From the NCBI GenBank assembly GCA_964016885.1, contig CAXHJY010000869.1, positions 1 through 64,000 on the forward strand: a DNA stretch of 64,000 nt, written 5' to 3'. The number at the start of each line of letters is the position of its first letter. The stretch's first letter is position 1. The notes beneath the pieces were generated by a model that was not told where the DNA came from, made no database searches, and saw only the letters and a list, made by a program, of their open reading frames with translations. The position numbers and the translations under genes are program-made. Source of the stretch: Eledone cirrhosa. Lineage: Eukaryota. Shown here piece by piece: positions 32,865 to 62,735 of the stretch.

Positions 32865-33370
32865 TTACAACCCCTAGAGGTGAACTAGCTTACTAATTTA
32901 GAAGGGCCCTAGATAAACTTAAACTAAATATTAAGATACTGGAAAGACCAGGTACCTCCATAAAAACACTTATTAATAATACATACTCTTTTCAAAGACC
33001 TCTCTGTATAGATAGGAAATGCATAATCTGTAAACTAGGCCCCCATATTAACTGTAAAACTAGAAACATAGTATATATCATAGGATGTACTGAGGGGCAA
33101 TGTAAAGATGAGAATATAATGTACATAGGTGAGACAGCTCGTAGCATAGGAGAACGATTAAATGAACACTGGCGAGAACTCCGAGATAGAAAAGACTCAT
33201 AAGTACTCCACCAACATGCTAAAATAGAACATAAGGGCAAACTAGAGAACATAGAAATAAAAATAAAATCTACATACAGAAAAGACAATGTTTAGACAAA
33301 TCACAGAGGCAATAAACATAAATGAACTCCAACCGAAATTAAATAGAAAACATGAATGGAATAGCAACAT
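32865..33370 (+). pseudogene. Penelope-like element GIY-YIG endonuclease relic
   Basis: ERPGTSIK..CIDRKCIICKLGPHINCKTRNIVYIIGC..C..YIGETARSIGERLNEH..RQITEAININELQPKLNRKHEW; two TAA stops and a frameshift. Confidence 0.9.
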
Positions 33371-33583
33371 CACAACTTACAATTAAGGACAAAATGAAAA
33401 CACACACACATAGAACAAACAACCAACCAGTAACATGTAAAGAAACAAATAAATAAACAAATAAAAACACACACAGACACCCGGATGTAACACATGCGCA
33501 AACTAAGCACACAACACACACAAAAACAAGATGGCGTAGGACAGAACAAAGGAGAGGCACAACACAAACAAAAGAATCCCCAG

Positions 33584-33624
33584 TCACTGAAGAGGTCACA
33601 TAATGTGTGACAAAAGAACTTTGA
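33584..33624 (+). ncRNA. Degenerate HHR in the 3' region of the Penelope relic
   Basis: TCA-CTGAAGA-G-GTCACA-taatg-TGTGAC-AAAA(G12 lost)-GAACTT-TGA. Confidence 0.55.
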
Positions 33625-33774
33625 GAATATATGAACAACCGTCCGGTGGTGGAACCAACCAACCAACCGGAAATTTATAAAAAATTTTAAATTTATAATT
33701 TAATTTATAATAAATTGAAGTGAAAGCAACTGGTGCATGTGTTTCTTATTGGCAACATGACCCTCCCAAAGTAT

Positions 33775-33871
<97 letters not shown>

Positions 33872-34015: not shown

Positions 34016-34070
34016 ACTGCCTGAAGAGGTCTCAGCCAAAGATGGCTGACACTGAAATATATATAGCAGT
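34016..34070 (+). ncRNA. Type I hammerhead ribozyme (Penelope-type)
   Basis: ACTGC-CTGAAGA-GGT-c-TCAGCCA-aaga-TGGCTGA-c-ACT-GAAA-TATATA-TA-GCAGT. Confidence 0.85.
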
Positions 34071-34115
34071 AATAAACGAAGCTAAATTTTAAACATTTGA
34101 CTTTTTATTTAACTT

Positions 34116-34147
<32 letters not shown>

Positions 34148-35459: not shown

Positions 35460-36225
35460 GTATTGGACGACAAGGTCACTTCAGAAGCTCTCTACATTCC
35501 AGAACCACATCATGAGACTTGTGACTGGCAAGCGGCTCACCGATCGTATCTGTATCAGTGAGCTGGTCTTGACTGTGCTAATTGGACGACAAGGTCACTT
35601 TAGAAGCTCTCTACATTCTAGAACCAGATCATGAGACTTATGACTGGCAAGCGGTTCAACGACCGTATATGTATCAGTGAGCTGGTTTTGACTGTGCTAA
35701 TTGGACAACAAGGTCACATCAGAAGCTCTCTACATTCCAGAACCACATCATGAGACTTATGACTGGCAAGCAGCTCAGCGATCGTATTTGTATCAGTGAG
35801 CTGCTCAACATTACCAAACTTAGACCAATTACATCAATTGTCAAGTCAAGAGTACTTAAATTATACGGTCATATAAAAATATCAACTCGTGGTGTGAGTA
35901 GGTTATGTATGGAAAGAAGGTTGGCTGGTAAGAGAAGTAGGGGTCAGCAGCCAAAACTACGGCTTGATAATGTCAACCTATGGACTGGACTTGATCTTTG
36001 CACTTTAAACTCTGCTGTTGGTGATCGAAAGGTATTATATATTCCTGGAAGGAAGGTTGGCTGGTAAGAGAAGCAGAGGCTGGCAGCCACAACGATGGCT
36101 TGGTAATGTCAAGCTATGGACTGCACTTGATCTTTGCTCTTTGAACCCTGCTGCTGGTGATCGAACTTTGTGGAGAGAGATACTACATGTTGATGCACAG
36201 TCTACAGCTGGCGGAGTTTAGCGTC
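35460..36225 (+). mobile_element. RTE-like LINE 3' end with 119-bp triplication and a second internal duplication
   Basis: KLSTFQNHIMRLMTGKQLSDRI..RVLKLYGHI..GKRSRG..DRTLWR. Confidence 0.8.
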
Positions 36226-37900: not shown

Positions 37901-37904
<4 letters not shown>

Positions 37905-38101
37905 AAAATGTATGATTCCGACGGCAGAGCTCAAGCCGTTTCGACGGCTATTTCTGGACTCGGGGCCCCAGAAATAGCCGACGAAATGGCTTGAGCTCTG
38001 CCATAGGGGTTAAACTTTTTCCTATTACCCGCTCTACTACCCTAAGTATTGAGTACTCTGGTGCGTTATTGTCCATCTGGTTCTTTACCACACCTCCTTC
38101 G

Positions 38102-38104
<3 letters not shown>
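37901..38104 (+). mobile_element. (TA)n-embedded palindromic element, copy 1
   Basis: TAGGA..GAGCTCAAGCCGTTTCGACGGC / inverse arm plus 80-bp tail ending CCTTCGTTA. Confidence 0.85.
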
Positions 38105-56982: not shown

Positions 56983-57690
56983 TAGGCGGGAAGCTGCTGG
57001 AATTAGTTGAGGACTTCGTGTATTTGGGAACAAAGATTGGGAATACGGAAGACGATGTGGTTGAGAGTAAGAATAAAGCCTGGGCGGCGTGACACAGTTT
57101 GAGATCGGTGTGGAAGTCGGACCTTTGTAAAGACCTGAAAATCCGCCTCTTCATTGTTGTAGTGGAGTCTGTGTTGCTGTACGTGTCTGAGACTTGGACA
57201 CTGACGAAGAAACTCACTCAGATGGTGGATGGGTGCTACACGAGAATGCTGAGGAGGGCTCTGAACATTAATCAGTATACACTGAGGATGAAAAACTCAG
57301 AGCTGTACGGGAGCCTCCCAAAAGTCCGCTCAAAAGTGACACAGAGGAGACTGAGCTTAGCTGGACATGCTCACCGACATCCAGAGTTGACATTGCACTC
57401 AGTGCTCCTGTGAGAGCCCCTACATGGACACACTGGAAGAGGGAGACTGAGGTTAGCTGGACATGCTCATCAACATCAAGAGTTGATACTGCACTCAGTG
57501 CTCCTGTGAGAGCCCCTACACGGACACACTGGAAGAGGAAGACCAAGGTTAACGTATGTTGATGCCCTAAGGACAGACACTGGTCTGTTGGAGACGCACG
57601 ACATGGCAGCGATAATGAGGGACAGAGACCGCTGGAGAGAACTCGTACAGGGATCTCGGGATTTTACCCGCCCTAGATAGATAGATATAT
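56983..57690 (+). mobile_element. RTE-clade LINE RT C-terminal fragment (pseudogenised)
   Basis: LELVEDFVYLG..LKIRLF..VESVLLYVSETWTLTK..DGCYTRMLR..LAGHAHRHPE; stops, ~95-bp duplication, (TAGA)n tail. Confidence 0.9.
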
Positions 57691-57764: not shown

Positions 57765-59000
57765 ATTTCTTTATTAGCCACAAGGGCACAAAAGTAGGGG
57801 ACAAATACAAATGGGAAGTTTATATACAGGTATATGAAAATAAAACTATTAATACAATAACAAATAACAATTGAAATCCCCAATAGGGGGGAGGCGTTAC
57901 ACAGGGGTTGTACACACCCAGTAAAAATGTACAACCCTCATCTCCAGTATCACCAAGAGTGAGTACTCCCTTCCTCTCTTCCTCTTTTTCCTCAACCTAC
58001 AGGCTTATATAGAGAGAAGCCCAACCACTCGGGCCATCTTTCCCACATTCACCCACCTTTTCTAAAATTTAGCAGTATAGATAGGTAGATACGTAGATAC
58101 GTAGATAGATATGTTTCTTTATTAGCCACAGGGGCACAAAAGAAGGGGACAAATACAAAGGGGGAAATGTACATACAATAAAAACGTGTAAAATATTATC
58201 ACAAATGCAATTTAAAAATTAATCGATTTTCTCCAATAGGGGGAGACAGTTCATATGGGTTACACATACTCCCGAAAAAATGTGCAACCCTCATCTCCAG
58301 GAGTACGAAGAGTTTGTACCCCTTTCCTCTCTTCCTGTGGTTCCTCAACCTACAGGCTGATATAGAGAGAAGGCCCATTCACTCGGGCCATTCTCGCCAC
58401 TTTCACCCAACTTTCATAAAACTTGCTGGGGTACAGCACCTCTCTCTCCATCCTGATTCTTCTTCCAAAGTGGTATTTGAAAAAAAGAATCAGTTGTTGG
58501 CCGGAGAGAAAGGTGTCTGACCTCAGCTTTTTTAACCTCGTCCACCATACAACCTCTTTCGCCATAGCTATCACACAAAGGAAAACCGCCTCTCCTTCGT
58601 TTTTGAAGGAGGGTGGCGGTTTGATCATGACAATGGTCTCGGTGGTCAACCGGATTGGTCCCACCCGCGACAATAGTCGTTCCACATAGCCCCACAGGTC
58701 GCTGACGTCCGGGCAGTGTATGAATGCGTGCGCGACGGTTTCTTCGTCTCGCACGCACCTCGGACAGATCTTTTTTGCAGGGTCCCTGCCCGGGCGCCCA
58801 TGTCTGTAGAGCTTGTCTCGAACTGGTAGAGCTCCTCGGTAGCACTGCCAGGCCAGGGACTTTTGGAAGTTGTCCATCGGTCCCGGGCGATAAATGGAGG
58901 TATAGATAGAGAGATAGGTAGATAGATAATTATATCTTTCTATAGATATATTTCTTTATTTGCCACAAGGGCGCACAAGAAAAGGGGACAAAACAAGGAC
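57765..59000 (-). mobile_element. Tx1/L1-clade LINE 3' ends (ORF2 zf-RVT fragment 58350-58890 plus two extra 3'UTR copies)
   Basis: AWQCYRGALPVRDKL..CPRCVRDEETVAHAFIHC..AKEVVWWTR; repeated TTTCTTTTATT(A/T)GCCAC. Confidence 0.88.

Positions 59001-62501: not shown

Positions 62502-62735
<234 letters not shown>

Follow-up and report, generated by a model that had tools for sequence, protein, structure and literature searches.

A (TA)n-associated palindromic repeat with the layout of short Penelope-like element insertions

The element at 37901..38104 folds into a long hairpin beside a (TA)n tract, and the two arms of this hairpin carry the same sequence variants, which raises the question of how such an element is formed and why its arms match. 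It was analyzed within the whole stretch of 64,000 nucleotides to which it belongs (the window), which is repeat-rich eukaryotic DNA. A BLAST search of the window with two copies as queries returned exactly six copies, and no others of note, at the six starts given in the original prediction; four of them are complete, with hairpin arms and an 80-nt tail. The copy at 37901..38104 (forward strand), the most diverged, has (TA)n on both sides and consists of an inverted arm (37901..37960, reverse strand), which begins at an internal site (site 1) beside (TA)n and extends to the mirror of the unit's 5′ boundary, a center filler (37961..37967), which is a G/C run unlike the family center, a direct arm (37968..38024, forward strand), which stops at site 1, and an 80-nt tail (38025..38104, forward strand) that spans site 1 to site 2. 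Two further complete copies lie on the forward strand, at 44022..44215 (palindrome, 44022-44136; tail, 44137-44215) and 44555..44760 (palindrome, 44555-44680; tail, 44681-44760), and one lies on the reverse strand, at 45722..45915 (tail, 45722-45801; palindrome, 45802-45915). The partial copies, both on the forward strand, are without a direct arm: the one at 62615..62735 has a 56-nt inverted arm, a 3-nt filler, and the final 62 nt of the tail, and the one from 63410 to about 63459 has a 37-nt inverted arm fused to the final 12 nt of the tail.

The palindromes of the complete copies at 37901, 44022, 44555, and 45722 measure 124, 115, 126, and 114 nt, respectively, with arms of 54-63 nt, and the fold of the 44555 copy (−132.7 kcal/mol; z = −18.9) was equaled by none of 200 shuffles. 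The repeat unit is about 140 nt long (about 44621-44760 in the 44555 copy) and has two fixed end points, sites 1 and 2, 80 nt apart. An inverted 5′-truncated copy of the unit adjoins a direct copy in four of the six cases. The inverted piece is present in all six and always begins at site 1, the direct piece always stops at site 2, and the junction between the two is unlike in every copy. The tail forms an 80-nt extension on the direct side in all four complete copies and is partial in the other two. The 5′ boundary of the unit resembles what we take to be an initiator motif, a likeness that was noticed post hoc. In line with the original prediction that the copies lie next to (TA)n, the arm ends abut a TA run in six of six copies, compared with 918 among the 55,051 positions of the window outside TA runs, and the tail ends lie beside one in five of six. 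The prediction did not hold for the tail end of the 44022 copy, which at about 44216 abuts the tail of another element (family F; see below) and not (TA)n. The layout fits a (TA)n target bias, and the (TA)n tracts seem to have received insertions repeatedly. Three consecutive insertions were seen at 44022-44760, namely, the 44022 copy tail-to-tail with the family F element (44216-44506), (TA)26, and the 44555 copy.

To compare the arms, the first 54 nt of nine arms were aligned. Non-majority alleles common to both arms numbered five in the 37901 copy and two in the 44022 copy, with none in the 44555 and 45722 copies, and the variants quoted in the original prediction do sit in both arms. They are, however, not copy-specific as had been claimed, as the variant quoted for the 44022 copy is also found in the 62615 copy, and all seven shared alleles occur in 14-70% of the family reads in sequencing run X20. 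The shared variants are subfamily markers. Left/right differences number 15 over the four complete copies (9, 2, 3, and 1; nine in 54 nt for the 37901 copy), and changes private to a copy occur in one arm only and never in both; the proposal that the two arms mutate together is not supported. No alignment column separates left from right arms, a split of the kind that had been named as counting against the prediction. The expectation that arms should pair by copy was borne out in part: the true pairing of the four copies tied for best among 24 (2/24; P value of about 0.08), and the arm tree grouped only the two 37901 arms (support, 83/84). On these values, the four copies by themselves lend weak support to arm concordance, which is drawn from seven shared sites in two copies only. 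Allele frequencies at mirror positions in the reads are similar (r = 0.96; eight pairs with both rows among 40 of 109 rows), a correlation that is descriptive and not independent proof because reads inside an arm fit either arm, and in which reads ending at site 1 may derive from tail-less solo copies. Since the shared alleles are common in the family and the private changes are one-armed, the arms would share the subfamily alleles of their source at birth and then drift apart. The arms therefore likely match because both were copied from one source RNA at insertion and not through later joint mutation.

The family extends well beyond the window. With the 44555 copy as the reference (44545-44830), 24,532 raw RAD reads of the 12.5 million in run X20 and 20,203 contigs of run X1 could be aligned, in addition to 43 contigs from run X5 and 18 from run X6. 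Run X1 may itself be the source of the window. The repeat is present in sequencing runs of three organisms, in A and more weakly in B and C. It is a large dispersed family, whose size these counts give only loosely, as contig depth is not equal to copy number. Read depth at the TA flank equals that at the arm start. Relative to the tail, the (TA)n-arm junction is covered at a depth of 0.31 (X20) and 0.25 (X1), suggesting, with depth as a rough measure, that many tail-bearing copies are without an inverted arm. Pile-ups of X20 reads ending at 44607, 44616, and 44628 were considered as features of the element and rejected, as they match the three AATT sites of this stretch; they are likely restriction cuts, which would also mask the center in X20. 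Loose read ends had no long upstream sequence in common among 21 of 411 rows, and the upstream consensus of one subfamily reached an agreement of 0.74 in X20 and 0.46 across 113 contigs in X1.

The junctions bear on how the arms are put together. All four complete copies have different centers, which points to assembly at each insertion and not to inheritance of the whole structure. The inverted arm reaches further into the center than the direct arm in the 37901 and 45722 copies, in the latter by about 6 nt; the center of the 44555 copy is a perfect palindrome, the direct arm is the longer one in the 44022 copy, and the two partial copies have an inverted arm alone. Among 17 skip joints listed from the reads, a tally that leaves out one row with a TA insertion, the inverted piece is longer in nine, the direct piece is longer in seven, and one is symmetric. 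Five of six listed opposite-strand joints connect 44621-44631 to 44677-44690, which, on our reading of strand order in the table, corresponds to an inverted arm fused straight to the tail. These joints are few and thinly supported, with 1-4 start places and 1-3 contigs each at 80% likeness; most skip-joint sides are shorter than 30 nt, and the tallies cover part of a listing that holds 43 further joints. Collectively, the junction evidence favors two cDNAs primed from opposite target strands, at sites 1 and 2, and meeting head to head; against this, the one-armed copies could have arisen through later deletion. The statement in the original prediction that one arm is templated from the other is doubtful in that form, since four of the six copies hold inverted-arm sequence that is absent from the direct arm.

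Other elements in the window share this layout. A whole-window inverted-repeat search was swamped by (TA)n, and a masked palindrome scan, which covers the window in its place, gave 15 matches, comprising four to this repeat, five to TA-rich low-complexity sequence, four to other hairpin-plus-tail elements, and two more (14790 and 43747). The four unrelated elements (4016, 6534, 44296, and 46085) each have an arm pair and a 65-97-nt one-sided extension, with a TA run at one end or close to it. A type I hammerhead descriptor, run without a shuffled control, found seven complete motifs in the window (15161, 34021, 45038, and 63643 on the forward strand; 44394, 50146, and 61555 on the reverse strand), and none in this repeat family; six of the seven have a TA run no more than 145 nt downstream, and six of the seven have a 4-bp self-complementary stem III. 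Of the hairpin-plus-tail elements, at least four are unrelated to the repeat, two being members of families with hammerheads. The family F element (44216..44506, reverse strand) has an inverted arm that begins at the arm/tail border, a spacer, a direct arm with a full type I hammerhead (44394-44353), and a tail; the family has two unfolded relatives (15161 and 45038), and both arms of the 44296 element share three alleles found in neither. The family G element (6534..6734, forward strand) has an inverted arm, a direct arm, and a tail of about 97 nt, and its unfolded relative at 34021 (34021-34125) carries a full hammerhead. Because this relative stops without a tail at site 1, the arm/tail border, site 1 is a real insertion end in family G. 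That this layout and the sharing of alleles between arms recur in unrelated families with hammerheads supports the part of the original prediction in which the arms are made together during mobilization.

The center of the 6534 hairpin coincides, in this one case, with the predicted hammerhead cleavage site of the unfolded relative at 34021, which hints that the template of the 6534 copy was a self-cleaved RNA; hammerhead cleavage is described as dispensable in vitro (PMC11167929). The further hairpin-plus-tail elements from the palindrome scan span 45991-46221 and 4016-4224, and the former has by eye a hammerhead-like core, with one base altered, in both arms. The palindromes at 14790-14911 and 43747-43832 have no clear tail, and the first surrounds a TA-rich center. 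The unfolded family F copy at 45038 (44950-45228) opens with 14 nt of its 3′ end in inverted orientation, a short piece that recurs near 45485-45505; both pieces may be very short inverted cDNAs begun at the outer end site.

The repeat was compared with known systems, and its match to the published layouts of Penelope-like elements (PLEs) supports the original prediction, which had suggested this class. According to Craig et al. (2021; PMC8557442), Naiad and Hydra PLEs have an inverted 5′-truncated copy, a 30-40-bp tail at one end, and a (TA)n bias, Naiad, Hydra, and Neptune PLEs prefer (TA)n or microsatellites, and the formation of the inverted structures and tails is an open question. Like the repeat, EN+ PLEs (Naiad, Hydra, Neptune, and Penelope/Poseidon) combine an inverted 5′-truncated copy beside a direct copy with a one-end tail, a palindrome at the inverted junction, and a (TA)n target at which no target duplication is discernible; palindromes at inverted junctions are also described by Arkhipova et al. 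(2013; PMC3846280), who propose self-priming on the antisense template. Unlike these PLEs, the repeat has no ORF in any copy, its 5′ boundary is clustered near one point, and its tail is 80 nt, as opposed to 30-40 nt, the extensions of the four other window elements likewise lying outside that range. The protein of PAc, a Poseidon element of Anolis, is a predicted dimer that cleaves and extends both strands in vitro and starts at two internal RNA sites bounding the tail (Frangieh et al., 2024; PMC11167929). PAc shares with the repeat two fixed, A/C-rich end points bounding the tail, a hammerhead-like motif upstream of both, and an AT-rich target; however, its start sites are 30-40 nt apart, compared with 80 nt in the repeat, and the excerpted text does not link both-strand extension to head-to-head insertions. 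The non-autonomous PLEs MRC1 and Chlamys-N4 and the very short insertions of Chlamys (median new insertion, 128 bp) are, like the repeat, short, non-coding, and microsatellite-targeting, whereas these insertions differ from it in having (C)n or (CA)n targets, known autonomous partners, and head-to-tail repeats (PMC8557442; PMC9977147). Non-LTR retrozymes resemble it in being short, non-coding, hammerhead-related, and thought to be PLE derived, but they form head-to-tail tandem units with complete type I hammerheads, while the repeat is dispersed and head-to-head (bioRxiv 10.64898/2026.07.22.740005).

By these comparisons, the repeat falls outside the autonomous PLEs, the MITEs, and the retrozymes. 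The copies span 50-206 nt, and no PLE reverse transcriptase or GIY-YIG ORF overlaps any of them. A canonical PLE of the Penelope/Poseidon, Neptune, or Hydra kind would have a complete type I hammerhead near its 3′ end, which was not found in the repeat. Unlike a MITE or a TIR DNA transposon, the repeat does not have inverted repeats at both termini; its second arm lies inside the element, 80 nt short of the end. As for retrozymes, there is no tandem array at the copies among 150 of 195 rows (up to 52405), the copies at 62615 and 63410 are single by sequence, and no complete hammerhead is present. Pattern scans of metagenome contigs and viral contigs gave no matches to the repeat, and a 15-nt motif of the tail gave none in the supplement of Craig et al. 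(PMC8557442), in which line breaks can hide one. The open-access literature yielded nothing on this repeat family or on twin priming in PLEs, which may yet be published elsewhere. With no reverse transcriptase or endonuclease found to be linked to the family, its membership among the PLEs is one that we infer; we nonetheless consider it probable that the repeat acts like a PLE insertion.

We are thus fairly confident that the copies are short (TA)n insertions made by the reverse transcriptase-endonuclease of a PLE and that the arms are made at insertion. Within this PLE-type origin, a two-primer route stands about an even chance of being right overall. The PLE enzyme would cut each strand of (TA)n, and reverse transcription would be primed from one nick at site 2 and from the other at site 1; both antisense cDNAs would grow toward each other until their truncated ends were joined through short microhomology or filler; the nicking, priming, and joining steps are modeled on the work on PAc and on the geometry of the copies. 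Two cDNAs reaching the 5′ boundary of the RNA would give a near-perfect hairpin, and a site-2 cDNA stopping early would leave an inverted arm and tail only. In this model, two overlapping cDNAs would require strand displacement or two RNAs. If a single RNA, or sibling RNAs sharing a source locus, gave rise to both, the two arms would carry the subfamily alleles of that source and would thereafter each diverge on their own, as do the paired LTRs of a retrotransposon. More tentatively, at somewhat less than an even chance, head-to-head Penelope insertions could be products of paired target-primed reverse transcription, in which one protein dimer works on both target strands from two fixed RNA sites. 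The arm/tail border would then be the second start site, arm-to-arm divergence would date the insertion, and this family, abundant and without a protein of its own, would be a 140-nt passenger, or a "strong-stop" copy of the 5′ end of a PLE transcript, that has recorded the reaction thousands of times.

A PLE-type insertion could also proceed by snap-back, in which the site-2 cDNA folds at its 5′ end and copies itself, and the endonuclease resolves the product at site 1. This route comes close to the self-priming proposed in PMC3846280 and to what PMC8557442 terms "EN-mediated resolution". Snap-back guarantees identical arms and sits well with the near-symmetric centers of all four complete copies, among them the perfect palindrome at 44555 and the longer direct arm at 44022, as well as with the seven skip joints of 17 in which the direct piece is longer and the one that is symmetric. 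However, a cDNA that folds back from site 2 should leave a direct arm that is always as long as or longer than the inverted arm at the center, which holds in the 44022 and 44555 copies and not in the 37901 and 45722 copies; it forbids the inverted-arm sequence missing from the direct arm that was found in four of the six window copies. A second step, deletion of one arm only, is needed to account for these, and although snap-back followed by later one-arm deletion is possible, we consider the snap-back route rather unlikely. Homogenization of the arms after insertion, through hairpin or cruciform gene conversion, was part of the original prediction, and the hairpin is indeed very stable, with alleles shared between arms in two of the four copies. 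Ongoing conversion is nonetheless argued against, because each of the seven shared alleles is widespread in the family, private changes are confined to one arm, and the arms of the most diverged copy differ at nine of 54 sites; we regard this explanation as highly improbable.

If the element were instead a fixed palindromic non-autonomous one, either MITE-like or a rolling-circle DNA element, its masters would carry both arms, and the alleles would be symmetric in the masters. The constant outer ends and length, the fairly fixed 5′ boundary, and the failure to find a coding partner would all agree with this. Such an element is poorly reconciled with an arm at one end and a tail at the other in place of terminal inverted repeats, with four different centers in four copies, with a (TA)n-arm junction depth of only 0.31 (X20) and 0.25 (X1) of the tail depth, and with hammerhead-bearing families that have the same layout plus unfolded relatives, making it improbable. 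[quoted passage not shown] Unlike in L1, the second priming site of the repeat is fixed, as is the inversion point, and the two cDNAs usually overlap and so give a duplication. The arms are duplicated in four of the six copies, and to our knowledge L1 twin priming does not yield duplicated arms. Apart from the target, the repeat also has neither a poly(A) nor a simple-repeat tail, and Rfam gave no RNA-gene family match at gathering level in its region. We find an L1-type origin quite improbable.

Returning to the preferred reading, an insertion by a PLE enzyme with both arms made in the process, the PLE-like inverted layout is known already, and the claim of concerted mutation dissolves into subfamily inheritance. 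The repeat offers a test case for the formation of inverted structures in PLEs: with insertions this short and abundant, the junction pattern makes an open mechanism countable, and the models could be separated by counting junctions in one genome assembly. If the reading is true, arm divergence becomes an insertion clock, and annotators would no longer file such hairpins as MITEs or microRNA precursors. The repeat family itself is likely ordinary selfish DNA.

The repeat contains at most part of a hammerhead. The direct arm of the 44555 copy has a hammerhead-like 3′ half-core (44639..44661, forward strand) with GAAA, a 6-bp stem III, and C at the cleavage position; the CUGANGA half is absent upstream of it. 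This half-core was matched by 10 of 5,000 shuffles, a null that the internal repeat of the unit weakens, and it could be a by-product of that 6-nt repeat, because the 3′ strand of the stem is repeated just upstream. As a sequence likeness it is suggestive only, a lead and not evidence of catalysis, and no compensatory pairs in stem III were seen by eye among the listed read variants. A permuted hammerhead using the core-like 8-mer of the tail, which is exact in one X6 contig, was rejected, as no convincing stems were seen by eye. Rfam returned no hammerhead family among 94 matches in 43980-46240 and misses two descriptor hammerheads there, including that of family F; among the best 150 of 218 Rfam matches there were only sub-threshold hairpin and microsatellite matches and no hammerhead. 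In PLEs, hammerheads with a palindromic helix III and opposite-strand pairs 100-700 bp apart have been described (Cervera and de la Pena, 2014; PMC4209133), and several Naiads carry, as the repeat does at most, only half a core. The half-core and the (TA)n bias are compatible with Naiad and not diagnostic of it. In the repeat, the GAAA half lies upstream, and the tail holds the core-like 8-mer about 75 nt further on. Naiad_Obim and Naiad_Ovul have the two half-cores in reversed order at their 3′ ends (supplement of PMC8557442), and this likeness could reflect a shared permuted arrangement or chance; by eye, the repeat is unlike these two 3′ ends and unlike the hammerhead row of Hydra-1_Obim.

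Coding remnants are found elsewhere in the window. PLE-type coding DNA in the neighborhood is indicated by a fragment of a GIY-YIG endonuclease at 32897-33199, which has a cysteine linker and a Pfam match short of the curated threshold (E = 3e-4); by BLAST, this fragment has no similarity to the repeat family and is unlinked to it. A homologue search with the fragment gave one unnamed protein of 55 candidates, at 45% identity. The region 32897-33779 resembles a 5′-truncated PLE, with the GIY-YIG fragment, a CX4CxxC linker, and a long 3′ region ending at (TA)n. LINE-like coding remnants were seen at 58350-58955 (reverse strand), 57093-57413, and 35681-36067 (zf-RVT, E = 3e-7; DUF6451, E = 8e-4). 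Minisatellite arrays at 39602-41794, 20351-22920, 16945-20041, and 51520-52848 have units of 75, 55/108/163/271, 123-167, and 148 nt, respectively, and several of them look by eye to be built from SINE-like pieces.
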